Shown here: in pieces, positions 25,159 through 54,598 of the stretch | How positions within the stretch are numbered: the first letter of the stretch is position 1 | Layout of the letters: each line of letters starts with the position of its first letter | DNA from: Planctomycetota bacterium | GTDB lineage: Bacteria > Planctomycetota > UBA1135 > JAKEFM01 | Assembly: GCA_035695825.1 (NCBI GenBank) | Contig: DASRRH010000009.1 | Coordinates: 87,044 to 151,043 of the forward strand | Direction of reading: 5' to 3' | DNA length: 64,000 nucleotides | Made by a program: the position numbers and the translations under genes | The notes under the pieces: generated by a model | What the model saw: the letters and a program-made list of their open reading frames with translations, nothing else | Told to the model about the DNA's origin: nothing | The model's database searches: none

Positions 25159-25229
25159 GGCGAGTCCTCCGGCGGGGGTCCTATCCGGCCCTTCCCCGGG
25201 CGTCAACCGAGGGGACTCCGTCCCGGGCC

Positions 25230-26553: not shown

Positions 26554-28368
26554 TCAGTCCCGCCGCAGCTCGACGACCCGGATGTTCCGGAAGGAGACGC
26601 GCGAGCCCTCGTCGTGGTTCTGGATCCCGACGAATCCCCCGAGCGAGCGCTCCCCGGTGAAGTCGTTCACGCGCCGGCCGTTGATCCTAACGACGTAACG
26701 GGTGCCGGTCGCGGCGATCTCCATGTGGTTCCACGACCCCGGATCCGCGGTCGGGATCCGGGTCGAATCCTGGAAGTCGTAGATCGAGCCGGTCCGGTGC
26801 CTCGGGTCGGCGCCGTCGCAGATCTGGACCTCGTAGCCCCGATGGACGGCGACCAGTGGGTCGGTTCCCGGATCGGGGAAGCGGACGAAGACGCCCGAAT
26901 TGTCCTCCCGGCGCGCGACCTTCCAGTCGAGGAGGAGGAGGAAGTCCTCGAACGGGCGCTCGTGCCAGAAAAGCCCCATCCCGCCCCGGCTGACGAGGCA
27001 ATCCCCCTCGACGTCGAACCCGCCCGGCCCCGCCATCTTCCAGCCTTGAGGCGCCCCCTCGAAGAGGACGTGGTAGGCGACCGCGTTCGCCGGGAGCTCC
27101 TTCACGCGGACGTTCCGGAAGCGCACGCCGTCGCCGTCGAAGCGGTTCTGGAGGCCGATGAACCCCTCCCGACGCCGATCGCCGACGAACCGGTCGACCG
27201 TCCCCCCGTTCATTCGAACCGTGACCTCGTTCCCGACGCACGCGATCTCGCAGTCGTTCCACTCGCCGGGCCTCCGGAGGCGAGCATTGCTCGGTGCCGG
27301 GGACGAGCCGATCGCCCCGGTCGAGCTCTTCTCCCTCCCGTCGTCGCCGATCCGGACCGAGTAGCCATACTTCACGGCGACCCACGGGTCGTTCCCCGGA
27401 TCGGGGAGCCGGACGAAGACGCCGGAGCCGGCCGAGGTCTTCTCCTGGAGAAACTCGAGCCGGAGGAGGATGTTCTCGAAAGGCTTCGCCGCGAACCACC
27501 AGAGGCCCGTTGCGCCCTGGGGGATCGCCACGCCATCCTCCAGCCGAAATCCGCCGGGACCCTCCTGCTTCCACCCCACCGAGGCATGGGGAGGATCGAG
27601 GAGCGCCCGGCACCCCTCCGCGTCGACGTCGCGTCCCATCGCCCAGCGGATCCCCTCGACGAGGTGGGTGAGGTAGCGGGGATCCTGCCAGACCTCCTCG
27701 CGGTGGCCGAGGGCCGTGTAGAACACGCGCCCCTCGCCGAACTCGCGGCTCCAGGAAAGGGCGAAGTCCCGGTCGTCGCGGTTCACCCCCTTCGCGGAGA
27801 GGTCGACGCTCTGCGGGTCGAGCGAGAGGAGGACGTGGACGCGCGAGCGTTCCCAGTTCCGGAACTGGTAGATCTCGTCCGCGATCGTGAAGGAGGCGCC
27901 GAGGGGGTGGGTCGAGGGGTGGTCGGGGTCCTCGACGCGGACGCGGACGTCCTCGTTCCAGGGGTGCCCGTCGAAGATTCCGCCGAGCATCTCGCCGTAG
28001 GCGGGCCATCCGTAGAAGGTGTCCGCCGCCGGATGAATCCCGACGAATCCGCCGCCGCGCTTCACGAACTCGAGGAGCGCGTTCTTCTGCCCCTCGTCGA
28101 ACGGGAGCTCTCCCGAGGTGTAGAAGACGACCGCTTCGTAGCGCGAGAGGTTCGCCTTCGTCACCGCGCCGCAGTCCTGGGTCGCGTCGACATCGAAGGA
28201 GTCGTGCGCAGCGGCCGTGAGCTGCGCCTCGGCGAGCGAGAGGGTCTGCGGGGCGGGCCTCGTCACCACGGAGTGCTGGTAGCTCGCCGAGTGGGTGAGG
28301 AAGAGGACGCGCGGCGGATCGGCTGCGGGGGGGCGGAGCGCCCCGAGGAGGAGGAGAAGGGGCAGCAT
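26554..28368 (-). CDS. ThuA-like domain fused to two DUF1080 domains, secreted
   Basis: Signal peptide MLPLLLLLGALRPPAA. ThuA blocks are RVLFLTHSASYQHS, GGGFVGIHPAADTFYGWPAYGEMLGGIFDGHPW and FYTALGHREE. Two DUF1080 units follow, ending GFIGLQNRFDGDGVRFRNVRV and GFVGIQNHDEGSRVSFRNIRV. Confidence 0.85.
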   Translation of the reverse strand: MLPLLLLLGALRPPAADPPRVLFLTHSASYQHSVVTRPAPQTLSLAEAQLTAAAHDSFDVDATQDCGAVTKANLSRYEAVVFYTSGELPFDEGQKNALLEFVKRGGGFVGIHPAADTFYGWPAYGEMLGGIFDGHPWNEDVRVRVEDPDHPSTHPLGASFTIADEIYQFRNWERSRVHVLLSLDPQSVDLSAKGVNRDDRDFALSWSREFGEGRVFYTALGHREEVWQDPRYLTHLVEGIRWAMGRDVDAEGCRALLDPPHASVGWKQEGPGGFRLEDGVAIPQGATGLWWFAAKPFENILLRLEFLQEKTSAGSGVFVRLPDPGNDPWVAVKYGYSVRIGDDGREKSSTGAIGSSPAPSNARLRRPGEWNDCEIACVGNEVTVRMNGGTVDRFVGDRRREGFIGLQNRFDGDGVRFRNVRVKELPANAVAYHVLFEGAPQGWKMAGPGGFDVEGDCLVSRGGMGLFWHERPFEDFLLLLDWKVARREDNSGVFVRFPDPGTDPLVAVHRGYEVQICDGADPRHRTGSIYDFQDSTRIPTADPGSWNHMEIAATGTRYVVRINGRRVNDFTGERSLGGFVGIQNHDEGSRVSFRNIRVVELRRD

Positions 28369-31670: not shown

Positions 31671-32909
31671 TCAGTCCACCTTGAGGACGCTCTCCCCGAT
31701 CTCGACGGTCTCCCCCGTCGAGACCGCCCGGTGGGCGAGGATGCCGACGGCGGTCGCGCGGTACCCCTCCTCCGCGCCGCAGACGACCGCCTCCCCCTGC
31801 GCGACGCTCTTCAGGAAGGCCTCGACCGCGTAGTAGAGGGGCGGCTGCGGGAGCCCGACCCCTTCCTTGAGCTTCCCCTGGGCCGCGAGCTTCGTCGCGT
31901 CGGCGATCAGCGTGATCCCCTCCTCGTTCCCGAAGCGCTGGCGGTTCGCGTAGACCTCCCAACCCTGCGTCGGCGCGTCGGCCTCCTTGAACATCCATCC
32001 GGCGGTCCAGGCGAGCTTGAGGGTCGCCTGCGCGCCGTGGAAGACCTCGTGCGCCCCCTCGAAGGAATTCGCGAGGCTCGCGGCGTAGGCGAGGCGGACC
32101 CCCTCGGGGAAGGCGAGGTCGAGGAGGACGGTGTCGGGGACCTTCCGCCCGTCGGCGTGGAGCCGGACGGCCCCGCTCCCCCGGACGGAGGCGGGGTAGC
32201 GGCCGACGAACCAGTGGAAGACGTCGAACTGGTTCGTCCCGAGCTCCCCCTCGAGGCCGAGGGTGACCTCGGGGTCGAGCCTCCAGTTGAGCGAGCGCTC
32301 GCGCGCGGGGTCGGCGGCGGGGACGCGCCAGGAGGTCTTCCGGTAGTGCTGCGCGCGCATCGAGACGAGGTCGCGGCCCGCGTCCGAGCGGAAGAAGGAC
32401 CAGGCGAGGCGGTAGACCGGGTTCGCGCGCGCCTGGAGCCCCGACTGGAAGACCGACTTGGAGGATCGCGCCCCCTTCGCGATCGCGCGGGCGTCCTCGA
32501 GGGTCGAGGCGATCGGAGCCTCGCAGTAGACGGCCTTCCCCGCCGCGAGGAGGTCCTCGACGATCGAGCGGTGGAGGTGGGTCGGGGTGGAGACGAAGAC
32601 CGCCCGCAGGTCCTTCTTGCGTTCGAGCATCGCGCGGTGGTCCGCGAACCCCTCGACGCCGGAGGCGCGGCGCGCGCCCGACTCGAGGCGGGAGGGATCG
32701 ACGTCGCAGAGGGCGGTCACGCGCGCCCCGTCGAGCTTCTGGAGCTCCCCGAGGATCGCCCTCCCCTGGCGACCGACCCCGACGACCGCGATCTCGACGG
32801 GCTCGTCCGGCGCGAAGGGGGAGAGGTCCTCGAGCGCGGGGACGAGGGAGATCGCGGCGAGCGCGCCCCCCGCCTCGACGATGAACTCCCGGCGGCTCGG
32901 CTCGCTCAT
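31671..32909 (-). CDS. Gfo/Idh/MocA-like protein with twin-arginine leader and atypical EAP motif
   Basis: ATG 32909 overlaps the ApbE stop (ATGA). Leader is MSEPSRREFIVEAGGALAAISLVPA and Rossmann block is IAVVGVGRQGRA. The usual EKP motif reads AVYCEAPIA. Confidence 0.8.
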   Translation of the reverse strand: MSEPSRREFIVEAGGALAAISLVPALEDLSPFAPDEPVEIAVVGVGRQGRAILGELQKLDGARVTALCDVDPSRLESGARRASGVEGFADHRAMLERKKDLRAVFVSTPTHLHRSIVEDLLAAGKAVYCEAPIASTLEDARAIAKGARSSKSVFQSGLQARANPVYRLAWSFFRSDAGRDLVSMRAQHYRKTSWRVPAADPARERSLNWRLDPEVTLGLEGELGTNQFDVFHWFVGRYPASVRGSGAVRLHADGRKVPDTVLLDLAFPEGVRLAYAASLANSFEGAHEVFHGAQATLKLAWTAGWMFKEADAPTQGWEVYANRQRFGNEEGITLIADATKLAAQGKLKEGVGLPQPPLYYAVEAFLKSVAQGEAVVCGAEEGYRATAVGILAHRAVSTGETVEIGESVLKVD

Positions 32910-33820
32910 CGGGCCTGGAAGAGGTCCGCCTCCGGCCCCTCGATCCGCCACTCCGCGTTCGCCCCGAGGATCGCGGAGGTCAGGTCGGAGGGGGCCCCCG
33001 GCGGCCTTCGCCCGAGGACGAGGAGGGCGGTCGTCCACCCGTCCGCGAGACGGGCCGAGGGGGAAATCGCCGCGGCCGCCCGGGCGCGCGCGGCGGGGGA
33101 GCCCGTCATCGGGTCAAGGACGTGGCCGAGCCGGATCCCCTCGCGCTCGACGACCCGGCCGTGGGGAGCCGAGACGGAGAGGGCGCGGTCGCGCAGGATC
33201 GCGGCGAGGGGAGGCGAGGTGCCGTCCTCCGCGCCGCGGACCGCGACCCGCCAGCCCGCCGTGCCCGGCGGCGCGCCGATGCCGACGACGCTGCTCGTCC
33301 CGCCGTGGAGGAGGGCGCAGTCGATCCCCGCGGCGCGGAGCCGGGCCGCGGCGAGGTCGAGGGCGTGCCCCTTCCCGATCCCTCCGAGGTCGAGGGAGAC
33401 GCCGCGCCGGAGGAACCGGACGGTCCCGCGGTCGCGGTCGAGGACGAGGAGGTCCAACCCGACCCGGGAGAGGGCGGCGGGGACCCTCTCGGAAGCCGCT
33501 TCGCCCTCCGCGCGGAACCCGAGAGCCTGCATCAGGGGCGCGACGGTCGGGTCGAACGCTCCCCCCGAATCGCGGTGGATCGCCCGGCAGGCCTCGAGGA
33601 GGTCGAAGGTCTCCGGGTCGAGCCGCACGGGAGCCTCGGCGGCGCGGGCGTTCACGCGCGCGAGGAGGCTCTCCCGCCGGAAGAGGCTGAGCCTCCGGTC
33701 CTCCTCCTCGACCTCGGCGAGGGCCTCCTCTCCCGCCGCGCGCAGCCGCGCCTCCCCCTCCCCCGCGAGGACCGCCTCGAAGCGCGTGCCCATCGCGTGC
33801 GTCGCCGCGACGACGATCAA
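32906..33820 (-). CDS. apbE: FAD:protein FMN transferase (ApbE family), no signal peptide or lipobox
   Basis: THAMGTRFEAVL lies near the N-terminus. Other motifs are SLFRRESLLARVNA and the hallmark LDLGGIGKGHALD. TTG 33820 overlaps the upstream stop (TTGA). No hydrophobic leader exists in any upstream in-frame extension. Confidence 0.8.
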   Translation of the reverse strand: MIVVAATHAMGTRFEAVLAGEGEARLRAAGEEALAEVEEEDRRLSLFRRESLLARVNARAAEAPVRLDPETFDLLEACRAIHRDSGGAFDPTVAPLMQALGFRAEGEAASERVPAALSRVGLDLLVLDRDRGTVRFLRRGVSLDLGGIGKGHALDLAAARLRAAGIDCALLHGGTSSVVGIGAPPGTAGWRVAVRGAEDGTSPPLAAILRDRALSVSAPHGRVVEREGIRLGHVLDPMTGSPAARARAAAAISPSARLADGWTTALLVLGRRPPGAPSDLTSAILGANAEWRIEGPEADLFQAR

Positions 33821-35154
33821 GGGCTGGGGAGGAGCGGCCGGGCGGTGAGCCTCTGCGGGTCGAAGGCGAAGGCGCACCCCTCCCACATCGAGCGCGTGGC
33901 GAGGTCGACGATCACCATCACCTTCGTGCCGAGCTCGACCCCGCTCGCGGGGGCCTGGCGCGTCCGGATCGCGCGAAACCAGTCGAGGCGGTGGCGGTCC
34001 TGGTCGTCGCCGATGTCGGGGCACTCGATCCGCTGCTCCTCGACCTCCTCCGCGAAGAGGCGCTCCGGGCGGAGCACGCAGTGGTGGCTCCCGAGGTAGA
34101 GGTTCGCCTTGTGCCCCCGGATCATCGGCTCGACCCCGGTCTCGTTCGCCGTCGAGCCGGCGACGACGAGGGTGTGCTCCTTCTCGAACTCGACGGTGAG
34201 GTTCACCTGGTCGTGATTCTCCATCGCCTTGTCGACGTAGTGGCCCCCCGAGGCGGTCACGCGGACGGGCCAGCCCATGTCGAGGGCCTGGACCATCGGG
34301 GTCATCACGTGGACGAGGAGGTCCCCGATGATCCCCGTCGAGAACCTCCGGTAGCGGCGCCACCGGGCGTAGACCTCGGGGTTCCAGGGCTGGGGGCCGA
34401 GGGGCCCGCACCACGCCTCCCAGTCGAGGCTCTCTCCGGGCACCCACGCGGGGTCGATCTTGTAGTAGAGCCACTCCCCGTTCTTCGAGTTCCGGCAGTA
34501 CCCCGTCTGGCTCGAGGTCGGCTTCCCGATCGCCCCCTCCGCGATCAGCCGCTTCGCCTCGCGCCACTTCGGGAACTGCACCTGCTGCGTGCCGACCTGG
34601 AAGACGCGCTCGGGGTGGGCGTTCACGACCTCGCGGAGGCGAAGCGCGTCGGCGAGGTTCCGGGTCATCGGCTTCTCGAGGTAGACGTCCTTCCCCGCGA
34701 GGATCGCGTCGACCCCCATCGCCCCGTGCCAGTGCTCGGGGCTCGCGATCAGCACGCCGTGGAGGTCCTCGCGCTTCAGGAGCTCCCGGTAGTCGCGGTA
34801 GACGTCGACCGCGGAGCCCTGCTTCTCCGCGCAGATCTTCTGCGCCTTCTCGAGGCGGGGCCTGCAGACGTCCGCGAGGGCGCGGATCTCGACCTTCGCC
34901 TCTCCCGCCGCGACGAGGCCGAGGATCGACTCGCAGTGGCCGGTCCCCATCCCCCCCGTCCCGATCACGCCGATCCGGATCGGGTCCTCGTCGCGGATCC
35001 AGGCTCCGGCGGCCGCGACGGAGGCGTCCGAGCGCCGGGGAATCGAGCAGCCTCCGAGGAGGGCGGCCGCGCCGGCGGCCGCCGCCGTCTCCGTCAGGAA
35101 CTCGCGCCTCGAAGGGGCGCGGACGGGGTCGAGCGAAGAAGGGGTGCCTTCCAT
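33817..35154 (-). CDS. Gfo/Idh/MocA family oxidoreductase with twin-arginine leader
   Basis: ATG 35154 (GAGGAG upstream) gives MEGTPSSLDPVRAPSRREFLTETAAAAGAAALLGGCS. Motifs are IRIGVIGTGGMGTGH and DVYLEKPMT. Confidence 0.85.
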   Translation of the reverse strand: MEGTPSSLDPVRAPSRREFLTETAAAAGAAALLGGCSIPRRSDASVAAAGAWIRDEDPIRIGVIGTGGMGTGHCESILGLVAAGEAKVEIRALADVCRPRLEKAQKICAEKQGSAVDVYRDYRELLKREDLHGVLIASPEHWHGAMGVDAILAGKDVYLEKPMTRNLADALRLREVVNAHPERVFQVGTQQVQFPKWREAKRLIAEGAIGKPTSSQTGYCRNSKNGEWLYYKIDPAWVPGESLDWEAWCGPLGPQPWNPEVYARWRRYRRFSTGIIGDLLVHVMTPMVQALDMGWPVRVTASGGHYVDKAMENHDQVNLTVEFEKEHTLVVAGSTANETGVEPMIRGHKANLYLGSHHCVLRPERLFAEEVEEQRIECPDIGDDQDRHRLDWFRAIRTRQAPASGVELGTKVMVIVDLATRSMWEGCAFAFDPQRLTARPLLPSP

Positions 35155-35364
35155 GGGGGCTCCTCGGTCTCTCCGGGGGGATTCCTCGCGGTCCGGCAGA
35201 GTGGGGAGCGTATCGGTCTCCGCTTCCGGGCGGAAGCGACCGGGGCCTTCCGGCCTCGCTCCGCGACAGGGTCCGCCAACGTCTCCCGGAGGCGTCCGTA
35301 GGCTGGCTCGGATTCCCGCCGCGCCTCCCCCCGACCGGGGGGGCCGGGTTCCGAGAGTGGTCCC

Positions 35365-37098
35365 ATGCTCGCGACGGCGCTCGCCTCGTTCCTCCTCCCT
35401 CCCCTCGGCGCGGCCCGGCAGCCGGACCTCCGCCTCGTCGAGACGGTCCAGGGCGAGGTCGGGAAGGGGATCGACGAGACGATCTCCCGTCTCGAGAAGT
35501 TCGGCTTCTCGGGGGTCGGCCTCGTCGCGAGGGGAGGGGAGGTCCTCCTCGCGAAGGGGTACGGGCTCGCCGACTGCGAGAAGGGGGTCCCCTGCACGGT
35601 CGAGACCGTCTTCTCGGTCGGCTCGATCACGAAGCAGTTCACCGCCGCCGCGATCCTCAAGCTCGAGATGGAGGGGAAGCTCGCGGTGGAGGATCCGATC
35701 TCGAAGCACCTCCCGGGCGTCCCTCCCGACAAGGCGGGGATCACCCTCCACCACCTCCTCACGCACTCCTCGGGGCTCCGCTCCGACTTCGCCGAGGGGG
35801 ACTTCGAACCGGTCGGGAGAGAGGAGTACGTGCGGCGGGCCCTCGCCTCGCCCCTCCTCTTCGAGCCGGGGACTTCGTACGCGTACTCGAACGCGGGCTA
35901 CTCCCTCCTCGGCGCGATCGTCGAGCTGCGCTCCGGGAAGGGCTACGAGGCCTACCTGCGCGCCGCCCTCTTCGAGCCCGCCGGGATGCTCCGGACCGGG
36001 TACCGGATCCCGAAGTGGAGGCCCGAGGACCTCCTCGTCGGCTACCGAGCCGGAGAGCGGTGGGGGACGATCCTCGAGAGGCCGATGGCGGAGGACGGCC
36101 CCTACTGGGCTCTGCGGGCGAACGGGGGGATCCACACGACGCTCGGGGACATGCTCCGCTGGCACCTCGCGCTCGAGGGGGACGCGGTCCTCTCCACGGA
36201 GGCCCGCCGGAAGCTCTTCACTCCCCACGTCGCCGAGGGCCCCGAGGGCCGGTCGCACTACGGCTACGGCTGGGCGATCTTCAAGACCCCGCGGGGGACG
36301 AAGCTCGTCGCCCACAACGGGGGGAACGGGATCTTCGCGGCCGACTTCCGCCGCTACGTCGACGAGGGGGCGCTGCTCCTCCTCGCCTCCTCGAACGCCG
36401 AGATGCCGGCGATCGCCCTCTCGAACCACGTGGCGCGGATCCTCTTCGGGGACCGCGAGCCTCTTCCCCCCCGCGTCGTCGACCTCGATCGGGCGGGCCT
36501 CAAGCGCTGCGCGGGGAACTACCGGCTCCCTTCGGGCTCCTCGATCCGCGTGGACGCGCGCGAGCGGGGCCTCGCGCTCGGGGCCTCGCAGCCCGACGCG
36601 CTGGCGCTCCTCCTCGGCGCCGGCGCGGGGGGAGAGCTCGCGACGCGCGTCGAGGCGATCGTGCGGAGCGCCTCGGCGGGGGACTTCGCTGCGCTCCACG
36701 CCGCGGTCCGCGCGAGCGTCCCCGTCGCGGCGTTCGCCGAGGCGGAGGCGTCGGTCTGGTCGCGCTGGAAGGCCGAGCTCGGGGCGTTCCGCGCCGTGAA
36801 GGCGGTCGCCCGGCCGGGGCGCGAAGGGATCGTGCGCGCCTTCGCCTGCCTCGAGTTCGAGAAGGGGACCCGGCTCCTCGAGGAGGAGTGGGACGAGGGG
36901 GTCCTCGCCAGCGTCCGCGTCCGCGAGGAGCCCCTGACGCGCGAGATCTTCCCCGAGTCGGCGCTCGGTTTCGTCGCCTTCGACCTCCCGCGGTGGGAGA
37001 CCTGGCGCGTCCGGTTCGAGGTCGACGCCTACGGCGCTCCGGCGCGGCTCGTCCTCCCGGCGGAGGGGGGCGAGGTCGCCGCCGTCCGCAAGCCGTGA
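35365..37098 (+). CDS. Serine hydrolase, beta-lactamase (class C/PBP-like) fold, with about 200-aa C-terminal extension
   Basis: The SxxK motif occurs in FSVGSITKQFTAAAILKL; YSNAGYSLLG is also present. It is a paralog of 45019..46773. Confidence 0.85.
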   Translation: MLATALASFLLPPLGAARQPDLRLVETVQGEVGKGIDETISRLEKFGFSGVGLVARGGEVLLAKGYGLADCEKGVPCTVETVFSVGSITKQFTAAAILKLEMEGKLAVEDPISKHLPGVPPDKAGITLHHLLTHSSGLRSDFAEGDFEPVGREEYVRRALASPLLFEPGTSYAYSNAGYSLLGAIVELRSGKGYEAYLRAALFEPAGMLRTGYRIPKWRPEDLLVGYRAGERWGTILERPMAEDGPYWALRANGGIHTTLGDMLRWHLALEGDAVLSTEARRKLFTPHVAEGPEGRSHYGYGWAIFKTPRGTKLVAHNGGNGIFAADFRRYVDEGALLLLASSNAEMPAIALSNHVARILFGDREPLPPRVVDLDRAGLKRCAGNYRLPSGSSIRVDARERGLALGASQPDALALLLGAGAGGELATRVEAIVRSASAGDFAALHAAVRASVPVAAFAEAEASVWSRWKAELGAFRAVKAVARPGREGIVRAFACLEFEKGTRLLEEEWDEGVLASVRVREEPLTREIFPESALGFVAFDLPRWETWRVRFEVDAYGAPARLVLPAEGGEVAAVRKP

Positions 37099-37166
37099 GC
37101 ATCGACCGGCCCGTCGGGAGCTTGCCGGTGCGGGCGACGCTCGCGCCGCGCGCCTGATCCGGGCTC

Positions 37167-37191
37167 CCAGCGCGCCCATCCCCCGCGCTGG
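37167..37191 (+). terminator. Hairpin downstream of the serine hydrolase gene (8-bp perfect stem)
   Basis: CCAGCGCG (37167-37174) pairs with CGCGCTGG (37184-37191) across a 9-nt loop. There is no U-tract. Confidence 0.35.
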
Positions 37192-40180: not shown

Positions 40181-41416
40181 ATGGGCAAACGACTCGGCGT
40201 CGGGATCGTCGGGGCGGGGTTCGTCGCGAAGTTCCACATCCGTTCCTTCGTCGGCGTCCGGGACGCCGACGTCGTCGCGGTGGCGAGCCCGCGAAAGGAA
40301 AAGGCCGCCGAGGCCGCCCGCCTCGCCCGCGAGCTCGGCGTCGGCGAGGCGAGCGCCTACGACGACCTGCGGGAGATGGTGCGCGACCCCGCGGTCCAGG
40401 CGGTCTGGATCTGCTCCCCGAACCACGCGCGCCTCGAGGCGATGGAGGCGATCGCGGAGTCGGGGAAGGGGAAGGTCGTCGGGATCGCCTGCGAGAAGCC
40501 CCTCGGCCGGAACGTCCGCGAGGCGAAGAAGGTGCTCGACCTCTCCCGCGGCTTCCTCACCGGCTACCTCGAGAACCAGGTCTTCATGCCCTCGATCGCG
40601 CGGGGAAAGGAGATCCTCTGGAGGCGGGGAGCCGCGGCCGCCGGTCGGCCCTACCTCGCCCGCTGCGCGGAGGAGCACGGCGGGCCCCACGAGGCCTGGT
40701 TCTGGTCGGGGAAGGATCAGGGAGGGGGCGTCCTGAACGACATGATGTGCCACTCCCTCGAGGCCGCCCGGCACCTGGTCACGACGCCGGGCACGCGCGA
40801 CCTCACGCCGGCGACGGTGAACGCGGAGGTCGCCTCCCTCAAGTGGACGCGGCCCCCGTACGCGGCGCTCCTGAAGAAGCGCATGGGGGTCGACTTCGCC
40901 GTCCGTCCCGTCGAGGACTTCGCGCGGGCCTCGGTCGCGTGGCGAACGCCGGACGGACAGCCCGTCGTCACGGAGGCGACGACCTCCTGGTCGTTCGTCG
41001 GCCCGGGCCTCCGCCTCTCCTTCGAGACGATGGGGCCCGAGTACTACCTCCAGGGGAACACGCTCGAGAGCGAGCTCAAGGTCTTCTTCAGCCGGGAGGT
41101 GAAGGGCGCCGGCGGCGAGGACATCGTCGAGAAGCAGACCGCCGAGCAGGGGCTGATGCCGGTCGTCGCGGACGAGGAGTCGACCTACGGCTACACGGCC
41201 GAGAACCGCCACATGGTGCGCCGCTTCCTCGAGGGGAGGGCCCCGGACGAGACCTTCGAGGACGGACTGCGGGTGACGCAGCTCCTGATGGCCTGCTACA
41301 TGTCCGCGGAGCGGGGCGCCAAGCTCGCCTTCCCCCCCGAGGGTCTCGACGCGTACGAGCCCCCCTCGGCGAAGGGGACCTTCCGCGCGGACGACGTCTT
41401 CCGGGGCGCGCGTTGA
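40181..41416 (+). CDS. Gfo/Idh/MocA family oxidoreductase (cytoplasmic)
   Basis: Motifs are MGKRLGVGIVGAGFVAKFH (Rossmann) and GIACEKPLG (EKP motif). GGAAAAGG lies upstream of the ATG. Confidence 0.85.
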   Translation: MGKRLGVGIVGAGFVAKFHIRSFVGVRDADVVAVASPRKEKAAEAARLARELGVGEASAYDDLREMVRDPAVQAVWICSPNHARLEAMEAIAESGKGKVVGIACEKPLGRNVREAKKVLDLSRGFLTGYLENQVFMPSIARGKEILWRRGAAAAGRPYLARCAEEHGGPHEAWFWSGKDQGGGVLNDMMCHSLEAARHLVTTPGTRDLTPATVNAEVASLKWTRPPYAALLKKRMGVDFAVRPVEDFARASVAWRTPDGQPVVTEATTSWSFVGPGLRLSFETMGPEYYLQGNTLESELKVFFSREVKGAGGEDIVEKQTAEQGLMPVVADEESTYGYTAENRHMVRRFLEGRAPDETFEDGLRVTQLLMACYMSAERGAKLAFPPEGLDAYEPPSAKGTFRADDVFRGAR

Positions 41417-42715: not shown

Positions 42716-43909
42716 TCACGCCGCGGGGATGGCGGCCGCCTCTCGCTCGAGCGCGGGCCGGTCCTCGTCCCGTGCATCGGCCCGACCCACGTGGGTCACA
42801 TGCCCCGACTGGGTCGTCCCTCCGGAGTCGCTTGCGCGACCCACGTGGGTCGCCCGCCCGATCTCGCGCCCCGTCCGTCCGAACCAGCGCAGCCGCCCCA
42901 TCTCCCCGCGCATGCTCCGGAGACTCCCCTCGTGGACCAGCCCGTGGTGGCGCCCGCAAAGCGTCGCCAGGTTCCCCGCCTCGTTCGACCCTCCCGCCGC
43001 ACGCGGGACGAGGTGGTGGACCTCGAGCCAAAGCCGATTTGTGCACCCGGGCACCACGCAGCGGTGGCCGTCCCGAAGCAACACGGCCCGCCTCGCCTTC
43101 GGCGCGACGCTCTTCCCCGCCCTCCCCTCCGAGGACAGGTCCACCGTCTCCGCATCGCACGAGGCCCGCGCCACGAGCGCCGCCGACACCGAAGGTCCCT
43201 CCTTCCCCACCGTCGCTCCCCCGCAGGCCTCGCACCGGTAGAGGACCACCTGGAAGCGGGGCTCCCCCGTCCGGTCCCCGCCTGCGACTTCCTCCTCTTC
43301 ACCCGCCTCGGCTCCTTCGAGCGTCTGCTCGGCCATGTAGACGAGCCCCTCCTCGAGCGACTCCCCTCCCGTCACGCGCAGCGCCGCCCGAAGCGCCTCC
43401 TCGAAGGCGGCCTTGATCTCCGGGCGTACGTGAAGGACGAGCGGCACCGACTCGACTCCGACCCCTTCCCCCGACCGCCTCTCGCGCGCCTTCCCCGGAG
43501 AGTCCCCGAAGCAGGCCCGCGCCACCAACTGCTCGACCGCCCGGCAGGAGAGGCGCGAGGCCTCCTCGATCCACTTCGCCTCGGTCTCGGGGGTCGCCAC
43601 CCGGCAGATCTCTCGGACCGAGGACCACGGCAGCGCGGCCGAGCCGTACGCCCGGGCGAGGAGCGGCAGGGTCTCGAGCGCCTCGGCGACCCGCAGCAGC
43701 TCCCGGGTCTGGCGGTTCGTGAGCTCGGCCGCATCGCGGGCGTAGTGGAGGATCGAGGCGTAGCCGAAGGCCTCGAAGAGGCGGCGGTCGCTCACCTCTT
43801 TCAAGTAGAAGGCGAGGGCCCGCTCGGCGGTGCGCCGAGCCCGGTGGGCCTGGCGGAGCCGGGCGTCGACCTGCTCGGGGGAGAGATGGCGTTCGAGGGG
43901 AATCAACAT
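42716..43909 (-). CDS. DUF222-type HNH endonuclease (REP13E12-like family)
   Basis: ATG 43909 has AGGAG upstream. The N-terminal DUF222-like helical region includes FGYASILHYARDAAELTNRQTRELLRVAEAL. The HNH block is LRDGHRCVVPGCTNRLWLEVHHLVPRAAGGSNEAGNLATLCGRHHGLVHEG. Confidence 0.85.
   Translation of the reverse strand: MLIPLERHLSPEQVDARLRQAHRARRTAERALAFYLKEVSDRRLFEAFGYASILHYARDAAELTNRQTRELLRVAEALETLPLLARAYGSAALPWSSVREICRVATPETEAKWIEEASRLSCRAVEQLVARACFGDSPGKARERRSGEGVGVESVPLVLHVRPEIKAAFEEALRAALRVTGGESLEEGLVYMAEQTLEGAEAGEEEEVAGGDRTGEPRFQVVLYRCEACGGATVGKEGPSVSAALVARASCDAETVDLSSEGRAGKSVAPKARRAVLLRDGHRCVVPGCTNRLWLEVHHLVPRAAGGSNEAGNLATLCGRHHGLVHEGSLRSMRGEMGRLRWFGRTGREIGRATHVGRASDSGGTTQSGHVTHVGRADARDEDRPALEREAAAIPAA
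42784..42797. repeat. 14-bp perfect palindrome GACCCACGTGGGTC (copy 2 of 3)
   Basis: Read directly from the sequence. It lies inside the 3' end of the HNH gene. Confidence 0.9.
42836..42853. repeat. 18-bp perfect palindrome GCGACCCACGTGGGTCGC (copy 3 of 3)
   Basis: Identical to 19739-19756. It lies 54 bp from copy 2 and generates the repeated peptide THVGRA in the HNH protein tail. Confidence 0.9.
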
Positions 43910-44188
43910 CGGCGTCTCCTTCCTTCCGTGACTGGCGCCTCCGGGGCTGCGCGCCGAAATCGTGCGACATCTATAGTTCATCGGGTTTCGAAAAACGGGA
44001 AAACGTGTTTCCAAGTTCCTAGGGCCCACGGCCTTGCGCCGGGGACTTGACAGCCCTTTTCGGCCGATGGCGCGCGTCCCTCCCGGCCGCGACGGAACCC
44101 CGTCGCTGTCGCCGCGATCCGCCGCCGGTGGCCGAGCCCGACGCAGGATGCCTCCCGGCACCGCCCGAGGATGACGGCTCGCCGGAAT

Positions 44189-44902
44189 TCAGCGCGTCCG
44201 GCCGAGCGGCCGGATCTTGATGCTCCGGTACGACACGGCGTCGCCGTGGTCCTGGAGGGCGATCCGCCCCTTCTTCCGCGTGCCGTAGTCGGGCATCGAG
44301 GCGAACTTGCTCGCCGCGACGAGGGCCTTCCACTCGGGGCTCCCGAGCTCGTACTCGAGGAGCTTCACCCCGTTCAGCCAGTGCTCGACCTTCGCACCCT
44401 CGACCCGGATCCGCGCCTCGTTCCACTCGCCGACGGGCCGCGTCGCGTCCTTGGCCGGAGCGTGGAGCGCGTAGTTCGATCCGGCCGAGGTCATCGTGTT
44501 CCCCCCGTCCTTGTGTCCGGCGTTGTCGAGGATCTGGAACTCGGGCCCGGTCTGCCAGACCGTGTCGTGGTCCTCGGTCACGCCGAAGAAGATCCCGCTG
44601 TTCCCTCCCTTCGCGATCTTCCACTCGAGGGAGAGTTCGAAGTCGCCGAACTCCTCCTCCGTCACGATGTCGTCGGCCTTGTCGACCCGGGACAGGGCGC
44701 CGTCGACGGCCTTCCAGCCGTCGGGACACTTCTCCTTCCGGAAGCCGCGCCATCCGGCCGTCGTCTTCCCGTCGAAGAGGAGCCGCCAGCCGGCGGCCTT
44801 CTCGGCCTCGGTCAAGGTGTTCGGGGGAGCAGGGGAGGCAGGCTGGCCGCTTGCGAGAGGCGCGGGGAGGGCCATGAGTGTGAGAAGGAGCTTTCGCTTC
44901 AT
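44189..44902 (-). CDS. DUF1080 (3-keto-disaccharide hydrolase family) protein, secreted
   Basis: ATG 44902 gives MKRKLLLTLMALPAPLASG. Family blocks are GWRLLFDGKTTAGWRGF, DFELSLEWKI and GRIALQDHGDAVSYRSIKI. Confidence 0.85.
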   Translation of the reverse strand: MKRKLLLTLMALPAPLASGQPASPAPPNTLTEAEKAAGWRLLFDGKTTAGWRGFRKEKCPDGWKAVDGALSRVDKADDIVTEEEFGDFELSLEWKIAKGGNSGIFFGVTEDHDTVWQTGPEFQILDNAGHKDGGNTMTSAGSNYALHAPAKDATRPVGEWNEARIRVEGAKVEHWLNGVKLLEYELGSPEWKALVAASKFASMPDYGTRKKGRIALQDHGDAVSYRSIKIRPLGRTR

Positions 44903-45018
44903 CGGGTTCCGGCGGCGGGATCGGGATCCTACCCGGACGACCGGGGCTCGTCGGAGGGGCCCCACCTTCTCCCGGAGCAGACGGTCGCCCCGTATCGTCC
45001 AGCAGCGGAGTCCCTCCC

Positions 45019-47149: not shown

Positions 47150-48175
47150 TCAGCGGAGCCGGACGAGGAGGTCGAGCGGCACCTCCTCCGGGGCGAGGCG
47201 GCGCCGGAGATCCCCGAGGAAGCGCCAGCCGTCCTCGAAGTACCCGGCCGTCCTCCGGAGGCCCGGGAGGAGGGCGAGGAAGTGGGCGTTCAGGCGCTCG
47301 ACGAGGATCTCGCGCGCGTACTTCGCGAGGACCGAAGCGAGCGCGCAGGGGAACGAGAGGTGCTCCCCGCCGACGCAGAAGGAGAGGCGGGCGCCCCGGG
47401 CTTCCCCGTGGAGGAGGTACTCGGAACGAGCGGGTTCCTCGCGCAGCGGGGTCGGCAGGAACTCGGGGAGAAGGGCCTCGAGCCGGTAGAAGCGCCGGCC
47501 CCCGAGGCGATCGACGAGGATCGTCCCCTCCCCTCGCCGCGGGAGCGTCGCGAGGTGGCGGAGGAGGTCGACGACGAGGTCGAGGTGGAAGGAGGCCTTG
47601 TTCCCGTGCCGCCTCACCCCCTCGTTGAACGCCCGCTCGGGGACGACCCGGACGCCCGCCACCCGGACTCGAACGCCGGCGCCTTCGGCGACGGGGCGCG
47701 CGCGGTCGAGGTCGGCCTCGAGGACCTCGACCGGCGCGCGCCGGGGGAGGGGAAGGTCGAGGTCGCGGTACCAGGGGTGCGCGTCGAGATCCCCTCGGGA
47801 GGGCGCGAAGGGTCCCTCGAGGAGTCCCCGGATCGTCGCGGGGCGCCCGCCGCGAGCGAGGGAGAGGAAGAGGAGGGCCGCGCGCTCGAGCCGCGCGAAG
47901 CCCCCGGCCCCCGGGTAGAGGACCTTCGAATCGCAGACGGCGGGGAGGTCGGGTGCACCCGCGCGCGGGGGGCGAGGGGCGACCGCGCGGGCGAGAAGGC
48001 TCCAGAGATCGGGCGCCTCCGAGGGGCGGTCGAAGGCGGCGTAGCCGACGCAGAGGGGGCCGAGGAGGGGCCCGAAACCGGCCTCGTCGATCCCCCCCTC
48101 GAGACGTTCAAGGCCGTCGCGCCGCCCGGACGATAGTCGCGGCGGTCTCCGACCCTCCGTGGACGTCCTCCTCAT
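47150..48175 (-). CDS. RNase HII-family (RNase H2-like) protein, extended/divergent
   Basis: GIDEAGFGPLLGPLCVGYAAF resembles the RNase HII GxDExGRGPLxGPVV motif. CDSKVLY resembles DSKKL. ALASVLAKYAREILV resembles ASIxAKVxRD. At 341 aa it is longer than typical RnhB. Confidence 0.55.
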   Translation of the reverse strand: MRRTSTEGRRPPRLSSGRRDGLERLEGGIDEAGFGPLLGPLCVGYAAFDRPSEAPDLWSLLARAVAPRPPRAGAPDLPAVCDSKVLYPGAGGFARLERAALLFLSLARGGRPATIRGLLEGPFAPSRGDLDAHPWYRDLDLPLPRRAPVEVLEADLDRARPVAEGAGVRVRVAGVRVVPERAFNEGVRRHGNKASFHLDLVVDLLRHLATLPRRGEGTILVDRLGGRRFYRLEALLPEFLPTPLREEPARSEYLLHGEARGARLSFCVGGEHLSFPCALASVLAKYAREILVERLNAHFLALLPGLRRTAGYFEDGWRFLGDLRRRLAPEEVPLDLLVRLR

Positions 48176-48575
48176 CGTTCAGGATCCCCTCGTGCGCGAC
48201 ATGATCGCGATCGGCTTCGAGAACGTGCCCGAGACCGAGGTGGTCGCCGCCGCGGGGCCGACCGCGGTCGACCGCGCCCGCAACAAGAAGTTCGACGTCG
48301 TCTTCATGGGTCACGACCCCCGGGAGAAGGAGAACTCCGAGGGGAACGCCGAGGACGTGATCGCGCGGCTGCGGGAGATCGACAAGGAGGCCGAGGCCGT
48401 CGTCGTCACGGACGCCCGCTCGGCGAAGACCCTCGGGGAGAAGCGCGACAAGCTCGGGCCCTGCTCGTTCCTCCGGACCCCGATCCAGCCGAACGAGTTC
48501 TTCCGGCTCGCGGTCCGCCTCCGCTCCCGCCGCTCCCAGGCCGCGGGAGCCCGCCCGCCGAAGGGCGGGCGCTGA
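48159..48575 (+). CDS. Receiver-like (CheY-fold) single-domain protein with degenerate acidic pocket
   Basis: The VLLIVQDPLVRDMIAIGF beta1-alpha1 pattern is present. The expected phospho-acceptor region reads FDVVFMGHDP. GTG start at 48159. Confidence 0.45.
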   Translation: MDVLLIVQDPLVRDMIAIGFENVPETEVVAAAGPTAVDRARNKKFDVVFMGHDPREKENSEGNAEDVIARLREIDKEAEAVVVTDARSAKTLGEKRDKLGPCSFLRTPIQPNEFFRLAVRLRSRRSQAAGARPPKGGR

Positions 48576-48581
48576 TCTCCC

Positions 48582-49442
48582 TCACGAGGGGGCGGGCGCG
48601 CCGCGCGCGCGAAGCCGTCGCAGCATGATGAGGGAGAGGGCGAAGAGCGGGATCGAGATCGCCTGCGAGGTCGAGAGGCCTCCGGTGAAGGAGAAGGCCC
48701 CCGGGAGGCGGAGGACCCCGCGGGCGACGTCGTCGCCGCGGAAGGTCTCGATCAGGGAGCGCGTGACGCAGTAGACGGCGGTGGTCGTCCAGACGACCTG
48801 GCCCGGGAAGCGCCGCCGCGGGAGGAGGAAGCGCCCGAGCGCGCCGAGGAGGAAGCCGTTCGCGGAGAGGTAGAGCTGCGTCGCGTAGACGAGCCGGCCC
48901 GCGCTCGCCGGGTCCCACTGCGCTTCGGGCGGGATCGGGTCGGGGACGCGGATCGCGATCGGGAAGGGGGTCCCCTCCGGGGCGAGGCGGCCGTAGTCGT
49001 CCCCGACGAGGAGGCAGCCGATCCGGCCGATCCCGAGCCCGACCCATCCGGCGGCGAGGGCGTAGTCGGCGGTGTTCCAGAGGTCCATGCCGAGCCGGGG
49101 CAGGCGCCAGAGGCCCGCGGCGACCGCGCCGAGGAAGCCGCCGTAGAAGACGAGCCCCCCCTTCCAGATGAAGAGGACTTCGTGCCAGCGCCCCGCGAAC
49201 TCCTCGGGGTGGACGAGGACGTAGAGGAGGCGCGCGCCGCCGATCGCCGCCCCGAGGACCCAGACGGAGAGGTCGTTCAGACGGGCGGGGTCCCGCGCGG
49301 GGTCGGTCGAGAAGCGCCGCGCGTAGCGGCCGGCGAGCGCGCTCGCGACGAGGAAGCCGAGGGCGACCATCACCCCGAAGGAGTGGAGCGGGATCGCCCC
49401 GAGGCCGAAGGGGAGCGGGATCCGGAGGAGGACCGGCCACAC
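48582..49442 (-). CDS. lgt: Prolipoprotein diacylglyceryl transferase
   Basis: [46 protein letters not shown] and [11 protein letters not shown] match the Lgt family signature blocks. GTG start at 49442. Confidence 0.9.
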
Positions 49443-49445
49443 GGG

Positions 49446-49459
49446 CCGCGGATTATGCG
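49446..49459 (-). promoter_or_regulatory. Conserved 14-mer CGCATAATCCGCGG (minus strand) with -10-like CATAAT 9 nt upstream of the lgt GTG
   Basis: The minus strand reads CTCGCATAATCCGCGGCCCGTGTGG. It is identical to 13864-13877. The spacing implies a leaderless or near-leaderless lgt mRNA. Confidence 0.4.
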
Positions 49460-49528
49460 AGGGGGGGCGCTGGAAGGGGACGCGTTTCCGGCTATCCTTC
49501 CTGCCCCGCGAAGTCGAGCGGGCCCCGA

Positions 49529-50353
49529 ATGTCCGAGTCCCCCTCCCCGATGCCGGCTCCCTCCGCGCCCGCGCCGCGGCCGAAGGTCCGCGTCCTCTTC
49601 GAGGGGCGCTACCGCAAGTTCGTCCGCGACCTCCCGCAGACGGTTTTCTTCTGCCCCGACTGCAAGGGGCGCGGGAAGGGGTGCACGCGGTGCGGGGGGT
49701 TCGGCAAGCTCACGAAGGACTCCGTCCAGGAGCTGATCGCGCGCGTCGCGATGCCCCGGTTCAAGGCGCGGCGGAACAAGTTCCACGGCGCCGGCCGCGA
49801 GGACGTCGACGTCCGGATGCTCGGCCCGGGGCGCCCCTTCGTCTTCGAGGTGCTTGGGCCCAAGGTGCCGCGCCCCGACCTCGCGGAGATCGAGACGGAG
49901 GTGAACCGCCGCTACGAGGGGAGGCTCCAGCTCCTCGACCTCCGCTGGTGCGATCGCAAGCGCGTCGCGGCGGTGAAGGAGGGGAAGCAGGTGAAGGAGT
50001 ACGAGGCGCTCGTCGTCCCCGAGCCCTCCCCCGACTCCGGGCGGCTGCGGGAGCTCGTCGGCCGCCGCGTCGAGGTCGTGCAGCGCACGCCCGAGCGCGT
50101 CGCCCACCGCCGCGCCGACCTCGAGCGGCGCCGCTGGATCCAGCTCACCGCGGTCGACGCCGTCGAAGGGGGACTGCGCGTCCGCGTGCGATCCGCCCAC
50201 GGCACGTACATCAAGGAGGCGATCTCCGGCGAGGGGGGGCGGACGACGCCGAGCCTCGCCTCGCTCCTCGACGTCCGCTGCGAGTGCCGCGAGCTCGACG
50301 TCGTCAACATGTTCGAGGAAAGCGAGGCGGGCGCGGCGGCGGAGAAGGGATGA
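49529..50353 (+). CDS. Pus10-like tRNA pseudouridine synthase, THUMP-less (zinc ribbon + catalytic domain)
   Basis: The motifs are [18 protein letters not shown] (CxxC...CxxC), [42 protein letters not shown] and [20 protein letters not shown]. They parallel the Pus10 catalytic-domain motifs GREDVDVR, GxGRPF, TPxRVxHRR and GTYIKEFVHGDxGRTxP. Confidence 0.75.
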
Positions 50354-53234: not shown

Positions 53235-54122
53235 TCACCCCGAGGCCTCGCGGGAGATCCTCCGCAGGCGCGCCGGGAGCGGGCGGTCCGCGACGATCGC
53301 CGCGACGACGATCAGCGCCCCGCCCGCCCACTCGAGCGTCGAGGGCGCGCGGGACCGGACGAGCCAGGCGAAGTAGACGGCGAAGACCGGCTCGAGGGCG
53401 AAGAGGAACGCGGCGCGGTTCGCGGTGGTCGAGCGCTGGCCGTAGACCTGCCCCCAGAGCGTCACCGCGGTGGCGAGGAGGCCGAGGTAGAGGAGGAGCG
53501 CCACGTTCCCCCCGGTCACCGGCGGGAGGGGCTTCCCCTCGACCAGGCCCGAGGCGAGGGAGAGCAAGGCCGTCGTCACCAATTCGACTCCGGTGAGCGG
53601 AAGAACGGGCGAGTCCCGGAGGAACTCCCCGAGAACGAGGATCTGGACGGCGAAGACGACGGCGCATCCGACGGTCAAGAGGTCCCCATCCCTGACCCCC
53701 TCCTCGAGCGGCACGCCGAAGAGGCAGGAGATCCCCCCGATTCCGAACGCCATCGCGGCGAGGGTTCCCGCCACCGGCTCGCGCCGGAGGAACGACCAGC
53801 CGAGGATCGGGACGAGGATCGTCGAGAGCGCGGTGAAGAAGGCCGAGCGCGCCTCGCTCGTGCGCCCGAGGCCGAGGGTCTGGAGGGAGAAGCCGAGGTA
53901 GATCAGGACCCCGAGGAACGCGCCGCGCCCGAGCGTCTTCCGGTCGAGCGCGCCGGGCCGAAGGAGCGCGGGGAGGAAGGCGAGCGCCGCGAGACCGAAG
54001 CGGACCGCCATCAGGCCGAAGGGAGGCCACGCGGTAAGGGCCTCTTTCACCGCGACGAAGGTCGTCCCCCAGACCGCCGTCGTGAGGAGGAGGACCCCCT
54101 CGGCGCGCCGCCTCGGGCTCAC
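53235..54122 (-). CDS. EamA/DMT family transporter
   Basis: GTG 54122 overlaps the upstream stop (GTGA). TTAVWGTTFVAVKEAL and repeated hydrophobic segments are typical of EamA. Confidence 0.8.
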   Translation of the reverse strand: MSPRRRAEGVLLLTTAVWGTTFVAVKEALTAWPPFGLMAVRFGLAALAFLPALLRPGALDRKTLGRGAFLGVLIYLGFSLQTLGLGRTSEARSAFFTALSTILVPILGWSFLRREPVAGTLAAMAFGIGGISCLFGVPLEEGVRDGDLLTVGCAVVFAVQILVLGEFLRDSPVLPLTGVELVTTALLSLASGLVEGKPLPPVTGGNVALLLYLGLLATAVTLWGQVYGQRSTTANRAAFLFALEPVFAVYFAWLVRSRAPSTLEWAGGALIVVAAIVADRPLPARLRRISREASG

Positions 54123-54598
54123 ACGACGGTTCCGAGGATCTTCCCCTCGAACACGCGCTCCCCTCCGACGAAGGCCTGCGCGTCCCAGCGGGCGACCCGC
54201 GGCCTCATCTGGAGCAGGAGGGTCGCGACGAGGAGCCGGCAGGGGGGCGCGACGACGCCGCGGAAGCGCACGTCGTCGACGCCGCCGAACCCGTAGAAGC
54301 CCCCCTTCGGGGCGTTCGTCCGGAGGTTCCAGAAGAAGGTGCAGAGCTGCGCGGCCGCCTCGATCATCAGGACGCCGGGGAAGACCGGCCGGCCGGGGAC
54401 ATGGCCCCGTGCCCAGAAGCCCTCCTCCCGGACCTCGTAGAACCCCACGCACAGGTCGTCCCCCTCGGCGTAGTAGACGACCCCCGACAGCAGCTCGAAC
54501 TCGAAGCGCTGGGGGTTCACCTCCCGGATCCGCTCGGGGCCAAAGAGGACCGGCGCGTCGGCGAAGCGGGCGGGGTCGATGAGGAGGGGCGAGGGCAC
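54119..54598 (-). CDS. FabZ/FabA-like 3-hydroxyacyl-ACP dehydratase (hotdog fold)
   Basis: GHVPGRPVFPGVLMIEAAAQL matches the FabZ HFPxxPxxPGVLxIEAxAQ motif. The GTG 54598 start is tentative; the track ORF extends to 54919 with non-protein-like sequence. Confidence 0.7.
   Translation of the reverse strand: MPSPLLIDPARFADAPVLFGPERIREVNPQRFEFELLSGVVYYAEGDDLCVGFYEVREEGFWARGHVPGRPVFPGVLMIEAAAQLCTFFWNLRTNAPKGGFYGFGGVDDVRFRGVVAPPCRLLVATLLLQMRPRVARWDAQAFVGGERVFEGKILGTVV

Follow-up and report, generated by a model that had tools for sequence, protein, structure and literature searches.

Can a bacterium encode a Pus10 pseudouridine synthase, and what could such an enzyme do if its accessory domain were missing? 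The question is raised by a stretch of 64,000 nucleotides of DNA from a Planctomycetota bacterium (hereafter the window; assembly GCA_035695825.1, contig DASRRH010000009.1, positions 87,044 to 151,043), in which an open reading frame (ORF) of 274 aa at 49529..50353 of the forward strand, with an ATG start and a TGA stop, had been described in an earlier note as a Pus10-like pseudouridine synthase lacking the THUMP domain. The ORF was verified to exist, and the motifs quoted for it, [38 protein letters not shown] and [18 protein letters not shown], are present, as is a CxxC...CxxC pattern formed by C42, C45, C52, and C55. The note had added that Pus10 is generally regarded as an archaeal and eukaryal enzyme, which is in agreement with publications dating from 2017 to 2025 that state its absence from Bacteria and link it to the absence of pseudouridine 54 (psi54) from bacterial tRNA (PMC6380271, PMC7912444, PMC9957541, PMC12710931). 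The window protein nevertheless belongs to the Pus10 family, and its conserved features suggest that it is probably a functional catalytic domain that stands alone.

The family assignment is carried by both sequence profiles and structure. Residues 25-260 match the Pfam profile PF21238 (Pus10_C) with E=1.6e-57 and 195 bits against a cut-off of 27, and the NCBIfam equivalog model TIGR01213 ('tRNA pseudouridine(54/55) synthase Pus10') gives 260 bits where 200 are required, in a match confined to profile positions 161-400 of 402, with positions 1-160 unmatched. Overall, the Pus10 matches span E values of 1e-57 to 1e-77, which is far past chance, and the sole match by sequence in the PDB is human PUS10 (2V9K, E=8.5e-30). 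The AlphaFold2 model, built with 120 homologues, is confident and compact (mean pLDDT 92.9, pTM 0.85), and its top match in a Foldseek search is also human PUS10 (E=2.8e-22, TM-score (TM) 0.78, root-mean-square deviation 2.6 Å). The runner-up is TruA (E=8.9e-8, TM 0.50); the matches to TruA, PUS3, Cbf5, TruB, and RluA all have E values of 1e-7 or weaker and TM values of 0.3-0.5, so that the structural matches to other pseudouridine synthase families are at least 14 orders of magnitude weaker than that to PUS10. A scan of the window protein against Pfam and NCBIfam gave no match to the TruA, TruB, TruD, RluA, or RsuA families, and a TruA-, TruB-, or TruD-like identity was rejected on both counts. 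Because profiles and structure both favour Pus10, the protein is placed in this family and not in TruA, TruB, or TruD, as the earlier note had proposed from its motifs.

The architecture of the protein differs from that of any canonical Pus10. In an alignment with the Pus10 of Methanocaldococcus villosus (P0307), which served as a near stand-in for the enzyme of M. jannaschii that experiments have addressed (MjPus10), and with other archaeal Pus10 proteins, the window protein opens with the catalytic domain's first strand ([10 protein letters not shown]...), whereas the archaeal proteins carry approximately 180-195 extra N-terminal residues that contain two Cys pairs and the Pus10_THUMP_arc domain. 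A search of the window protein for PF22023/THUMP gave no match, whereas the archaeal controls match at E ~1e-22. The lack of a THUMP domain asserted in the earlier note is thus borne out by the profile search, by the unmatched profile positions 1-160, and by the start of the alignment. A hidden N-terminal domain was also sought in the long open frames upstream of the gene at seven related loci (L040, L027, L023, L011, L064, L070, and L002), in which Pus10_C alone was detected; this candidate was rejected, the frames being artefacts of high GC content. At the window locus, 119 codons of open Pus10 frame precede position 49529, antisense to lgt, and 49529 is the earliest possible start because none of these codons is ATG, GTG, or TTG. 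Translation could also begin at Met8 (nt 49550), giving a protein of 267 aa, and this shorter form is the one annotated for the identical database entry P0001. Judged from its sequence, the window protein is a domain-minimal variant and not a canonical Pus10. The catalytic-domain-only architecture is uncharacterised, and the zinc-ribbon/THUMP module was either lost or never acquired.

The residues on which catalysis by Pus10 depends are preserved in this minimal protein (Table 1). Conservation was counted over an alignment of 120 bacterial homologues. In the motif G89-R90-E91-D92-V93-D94, R90, E91, and D92 are invariant in 120/120, which upholds the earlier alignment of the catalytic Asp, and the corresponding R273 and D275 of MjPus10 are, respectively, the Arg at position -2, which takes the place of the flipped-out uridine, and the catalytic Asp (PMC3753934). 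The second Asp of the GREDxD motif, reported as conserved in all Pus10 proteins (PMC3753934), is Asp in 86 of the homologues, including the window protein, and Asn in the other 34 (28%). Tyr339 of MjPus10, the counterpart of the equally invariant Tyr158, is an active-site residue required for psi54 formation (PMC3753934). Y227 and K229 are likewise invariant in 120/120, with Ile or Val at position 228, and the equivalent K413 of MjPus10 is salt-bridged to the catalytic Asp (PMC3753934). Finally, L256, D257, and V258 are found in all 120 homologues, and L440 of MjPus10, which corresponds to L256, is essential for both psi54 and psi55 activity (PMC3753934).

The two loops that would contact RNA are preserved as well. 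H193 and R194 are invariant in 120/120, and the thumb loop in which they lie aligns with HRRAD of Methanocaldococcus, their equivalents in MjPus10 being H376/R377, the thumb-loop 'hook' (PMC3753934). The four Cys residues C42, C45, C52, and C55 are also invariant in all 120 homologues. The earlier note had taken this CxxC...CxxC pattern for a zinc ribbon lying upstream of the catalytic domain, an interpretation that is not sustained: the pattern lies within the Pus10_C match, aligns with 'C..C..G.GC..C' of archaeal Pus10, and corresponds to the forefinger loop that archaeal enzymes have within this domain, and human PUS10, in comparison with which the segment counts as an insertion, is gapped there. 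The forefinger comprises 24-30 residues in the bacterial clade, compared to 24 in Methanocaldococcus, and its four invariant Cys residues presumably bind zinc. In the work of Joardar et al. 2013, the forefinger segments ffl1 and ffl2 of MjPus10 begin at Cys227 and Cys238, respectively, and their deletion abolishes psi54 formation while psi55 formation is kept (PMC3753934). The P. furiosus Pus10, which has a shortened forefinger and Asn-Ser at the position of the His-Arg hook, forms psi55 efficiently and psi54 poorly (PMC3753934).

Together with the conserved residues, several properties of the gene mark its product as an intact enzyme under selection and no remnant. Its GC content at third codon positions (GC3) is 0.97, similar to that of the adjoining genes, and its dN/dS, which indicates purifying selection, is 0.30 against the closest relative (L001) and is estimated at 0.27-0.66 against more distant loci. 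The Pus10 core is basic (isoelectric point ~10), which is compatible with RNA binding, and is not more basic than the archaeal catalytic domains.

The window protein is one member of a large bacterial group, widespread in uncultured Planctomycetota. At 90% identity, a word-indexed search yielded over 100 clusters, 254-358 aa in length; Pus10_C is the sole precomputed Pfam domain in all but one of them, and the organism names, where given, are Planctomycetota or Planctomycetes throughout. A scan of GTDB species representatives found at least 75 loci, nearly all in metagenome-assembled genomes (MAGs) of Planctomycetota, and one clade member, P0069, sits on a contig of 7.06 Mb (JADKAF010000001.1, assembly GCA_016719295.1). 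The bacterial nature of the window host, as claimed earlier, is confirmed by a strong Lgt match (Table 1), by PSCyt1, PSCyt2, and PSD1 domains, and by the NCBI source name Planctomycetota bacterium; the window also encodes a GspG-like pseudopilin, in keeping with a bacterial, planctomycetal context. One locus carries a different label: L063 (JBLINB010000001.1), named Myxococcota bacterium, shows the same rnh-lgt...pus10 order and coordinates as the Planctomycetota locus L061, and its Pus10 match is near-identical to those of L061 and L062. This bin is probably mis-assigned or mis-binned.

With respect to origin, an exhaustive search of representatives folds the clade into a handful of clusters at 50% identity, and the next matches are of archaeal length with 40-47% identity. 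The closest relatives outside the clade share 45-47% identity and have shortened N-termini of 78-110 residues, one of them coming from a Diapherotrites (DPANN) archaeon. In a rough neighbour-joining tree of 163 catalytic domains, the bacterial proteins are monophyletic. The simplest reading of these sequence relationships is that the clade represents an old acquisition of an archaeal-type pus10 by horizontal transfer. Transfer of RNA-modification enzymes between domains of life has precedents, for example, the RumA-type m5U54 methyltransferase found in Archaea. Two observations weigh against this reading: the nearest relatives outside the clade are merely 45-47% identical, with Diapherotrites as the sole organism-named one checked, and midpoint rooting of the tree places the clade outside all the other representatives, so that no donor is singled out. 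A separate observation concerns P0144 (L076, 3888-4634), an orphan Pus10_C-only protein of 248 aa on a low-GC metagenome contig, where it adjoins TIM and a RelA/SpoT-type gene (HD, RelA_SpoT, TGS, and ACT domains). It was considered as a second bacterial lineage without THUMP and rejected, its nearest relatives being canonical Thermoplasmatota Pus10 proteins of 409 aa with 55% identity; P0144 may represent an independent THUMP loss or transfer.

Comparison with known enzymes places the bacterial form at one end of a series. The archaeal Pus10 proteins (TIGR01213, PF21238 plus PF22023; M. jannaschii and P. furiosus) have catalytic domains 40-47% identical to the window protein and share with it an identical [11 protein letters not shown] motif, the Cys-knuckle forefinger, the HRRAD hook, and the Tyr, Ile-Lys, and Leu residues of the core. 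Compared to these, the window protein lacks the N-terminal accessory domain of ~190 residues and belongs to a bacterial clade of its own, in which Asn replaces the second Asp of GREDxD in the proportion given above. Human PUS10 (2V9K) has the same catalytic core, with 32% identity over 253 columns, and differs in its large N-terminal THUMP-containing domain and in the lack of the CxxC...CxxC forefinger insertion. The short Pus10 proteins of DPANN archaea (P0126, P0127, and P0340; e.g., Candidatus Diapherotrites), with 322-340 aa and 45-47% identity, have reduced N-termini without the N-terminal Cys pairs, and the THUMP_arc match is weak in some of them and undetectable in P0126. They differ from the bacterial form in being archaeal and in keeping 75-100 N-terminal residues, and in terms of sequence they appear intermediate between canonical Pus10 and the catalytic-domain-only form. 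RluA, which also consists of a catalytic domain only, offers a mechanistic likeness: its forefinger and thumb loops pinch a 7-nt loop, and in its HRLD motif, as in GREDxD, the catalytic Asp is preceded at position -2 by an Arg (PMC3753934). RluA is nevertheless a different family (Foldseek E=1.3e-2 versus 2.8e-22 for PUS10). TruB, the canonical bacterial tRNA psi55 synthase, has the same presumed product, psi55 in the T-loop, but is unrelated beyond the shared core fold (TM ~0.35), carries a PUA domain, and has no forefinger loop.

The features described above make it fairly probable that the window gene encodes a functional, stand-alone Pus10 pseudouridine synthase of archaeal-type ancestry that consists of the catalytic domain only and acts on the tRNA T-loop at U55 and probably also at U54. 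In such an enzyme, no domain other than the catalytic one would take part in recognising the T-loop: its Cys-knuckle forefinger and His-Arg thumb loops would pinch the T stem-loop between them, Arg90 would occupy the site vacated by the flipped-out uridine, and the isomerisation, most likely of U55 and probably of U54 too, would be catalysed by Asp92. A pinch of this kind is the way in which the single-domain RluA handles a stem-loop (PMC3753934), which supports the proposal. Both the tRNA U54/U55 substrate and the archaeal origin are what we infer. The THUMP domain may be dispensable for T-arm modification, by analogy, because MjPus10 modifies an isolated T-arm micro-helix or minihelix and human PUS10 works without the CCA end of the tRNA (PMC9957541). 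Retention of psi54 activity is suggested because the features that MjPus10 needs for psi54 and not for psi55, namely the forefinger knuckle, the His-Arg hook, Arg90, Tyr158, and Leu256, are strictly kept. A bolder proposal, that the Planctomycetota clade makes psi54 in bacterial tRNA or even replaces TruB for psi55, appears possible from the sequences but somewhat doubtful.

Three points speak against the proposed function. The 'psi54 determinants' could be conserved merely through a heavier reliance on loop contacts after THUMP loss; the isolated archaeal catalytic domain, which Kamalampeta is said to have studied in 2013, may reportedly be poorly active; and the cellular role could be redundant psi55 formation, psi54 formation, or TruB replacement. 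Scanning the 64-kb window and 732 kb of related loci for motifs revealed none of TruB, TruA, TruD, or RluA, which is uninformative on whole genomes, and ARAGORN found no tRNA genes at the 75 syntenic loci. In the window, the sole ARAGORN call is a 93-nt tRNA-Ala(GGC) at 33228-33320 (-), within a region of long ORFs, and an Rfam scan of the whole window gave no tRNA at the gathering score; at 72% GC, the sequence has probably given rise to a spurious call.

The first alternative to a T-loop enzyme is that THUMP loss has retargeted an active pseudouridine synthase to another RNA, such as a stem-loop of rRNA or transfer-messenger RNA or a T-loop-like motif, instead of tRNA U54/U55. This would be consistent with the complete absence of THUMP, which is thought to dock the 3′ end of tRNA (PMC9957541), with the use of RluA-like forefinger and thumb loops for rRNA and tRNA alike by RluA itself (PMC3753934), and with the Asn found at the second Asp of GREDxD in about a quarter of the clade. 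However, all the residues and loops with which MjPus10 modifies the T-loop are invariant in the clade, the identity to archaeal catalytic domains reaches 40-47% with no clade-specific insertions, and archaeal Pus10 recognises the T-arm alone (PMC9957541), which together make retargeting unlikely. It is still less probable that Pus10 is split, with a separate THUMP or RNA-binding partner supplying tRNA docking in trans. An accessory domain is always present in canonical Pus10, and the intermediate, shortened N-termini of DPANN archaea make modularity plausible; against these considerations, neither the window nor the conserved neighbours (lgt, RNase HII-like, FabZ-like, and a pyridoxal phosphate enzyme) include a THUMP or RNA-binding gene, and pus10 stands alone between divergent and convergent neighbours.

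Another alternative is a functional link with the downstream gene, copA, for example in copper-responsive RNA modification. The earlier note had pointed to the overlap of the pus10 stop with the copA start (ATGA at 50350-50353) as an unexpected functional pairing. The overlap of 4 nt is real and has a GTGA counterpart in L001; the open frame of copA reaches back into pus10, as far as 49681. Co-transcription of pus10 and copA in this lineage appears likely because GGAG lies 8-11 nt before the copA ATG and a terminator scan between the two genes found none. However, copA follows pus10 in 2/75 loci only, L001 (87% identical) and L071 (91% identical), which are both closest relatives. At other loci, pus10 is usually followed after ~115 bp by a convergent FabZ-like gene, which in the window is displaced by a lineage-specific insertion of ~3.7 kb comprising copA, a gene for a pseudopilin-like protein, and one for an EamA transporter. 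The restriction of the overlap to the closest relatives and the place of copA in this insertion give no support to a functional pairing; from the arrangement of the loci, the overlap would be a by-product of recent insertion without functional partnership, and the copper link is effectively excluded. The same applies to the readings of the ORF as a truncated pseudogene, as a chimera of the assembly, or as archaeal DNA contaminating a bacterial bin, to which coverage limited to the C-terminal 60% of the archaeal profile might have pointed: the same architecture and synteny recur in ~70 independent MAG assemblies, including the 7.06 Mb contig, and GC3, dN/dS, the invariant catalytic residues, and the confident, compact model all argue otherwise.

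The existence of a functional stand-alone Pus10 in Planctomycetota would have several implications. A conserved bacterial Pus10 clade contradicts the stated absence of the enzyme from Bacteria and makes the related claim about psi54 directly testable. The catalytic-domain-only enzymes provide a natural experiment on the contribution of THUMP to Pus10, and if the clade indeed makes psi54 or replaces TruB, this would show that selection of the T-loop requires no part of Pus10 beyond its catalytic domain. These enzymes would also be compact, probably tractable candidates for a first Pus10-RNA co-structure, the structure lists consulted containing only apo human PUS10 (2V9K) for the family. The novelty is tempered by the fact that PGAP and JGI already label the clade proteins automatically as 'tRNA pseudouridine(54/55) synthase Pus10', as well as by the precedents for cross-domain transfer of RNA-modification enzymes. 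Full-text literature searches for Pus10 together with Planctomycetes or Planctomycetota, for 'bacterial Pus10', and for 'Pus10-like' returned nothing relevant. The earlier note had allowed that homologues might prove common and already characterised in bacteria; they are indeed common in Planctomycetota MAGs and auto-annotated as Pus10, but none is characterised. The bacterial proteins are thus apparently visible in databases and undiscussed in the literature.

Table 1. Features of the pus10 locus, in coordinates of the window.
Feature	Position	Strand	Basis or remark
lgt (prolipoprotein diacylglyceryl transferase), divergent neighbour	48582..49442	-	Pfam LGT E=7.9e-44
Divergent lgt/pus10 intergenic region, 86 bp, presumed promoter region of both	49443..49528	.	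gene coordinates
THUMP-less Pus10-family pseudouridine synthase, coding sequence	49529..50353	+	Pfam, NCBIfam, AlphaFold2, Foldseek
Forefinger loop, residues 39-64, Cys knuckle C42-x2-C45...C52-x2-C55	49643..49720	+	alignment
Catalytic motif GREDVD (R90, catalytic D92, D94)	49793..49810	+	equivalents MjPus10 R273, D275, D277
Tyr158 codon, equivalent to MjPus10 Tyr339	50000..50002	+	invariant 120/120
Thumb loop [18 protein letters not shown], residues 185-202, His193-Arg194 'hook'	50081..50134	+	alignment
GTYIKE motif, I228/K229 equivalent to MjPus10 I412/K413	50201..50218	+	alignment with Methanocaldococcus
ELDV motif with Leu256, equivalent to MjPus10 Leu440	50291..50302	+	alignment
copA-type P1B copper ATPase, 760 aa	50350..52632	+	YHS, HMBD, PF00122 E1-E2_ATPase, PF00702 HAD
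FabZ-like hotdog dehydratase, usual convergent neighbour	54119..54514	-	FabZ NF000582 E=1.6e-18

The usual setting of pus10 comprises a divergent lgt upstream, with an RNase HII-like gene beyond it, and the convergent FabZ-like gene downstream (54 loci). In ~60/75 loci the upstream side holds an lgt homologue; most of these adjoin pus10 directly, and in ~16 loci the distance is 2-4 kb. A sigma-70 consensus scan of the lgt/pus10 intergenic region found no promoter match, the sigma-70 consensus being uninformative for this phylum. The copA product scores well above the NCBIfam cut-offs (559 bits versus 397 for TIGR01511 and 594 bits versus 346 for TIGR01525), and its N-terminus has YHS and an HMBD motif in place of the usual ferredoxin-like HMA metal-binding domains.

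Beyond lgt, the gene at 47150-48175 (-) encodes a protein of 341 aa that matches RNase HII over its first ~25 residues (GIDEAG...GP) and over a short C-terminal piece, with E ~1e-6, far below the cut-offs; this pattern might reflect a divergent enzyme of RNase HII type that carries an insertion. A homologue is found upstream of pus10 in ~55/75 loci, beside lgt if that gene is present, and also in the lgt-less loci L065, L066, and L068. An ORF of 138 aa at 48159-48575 (+), which shares 17 nt with the beginning of the oppositely oriented RNase HII-like gene, has a receiver-domain-like N-terminus (MDVLLIVQDP...D..) with no Pfam or NCBIfam match and is conserved in L001, L038, L065, L066, and L068. 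Farther away, the sole recognisable feature of a 480-aa protein at 42716-44161 (-) is a C-terminal HNH endonuclease motif (E ~1e-4). The window also contains three proteins with 3-keto-disaccharide hydrolase domains, at 24535-25206 (-), 26554-28368 (-), and 44189-44965 (-), one of which is fused to ThuA, and several GFO/IDH/MocA oxidoreductases (31671-33038, 33817-37179, and 40181-41416); these genes look like a sugar-oxidation neighbourhood typical of Planctomycetota.

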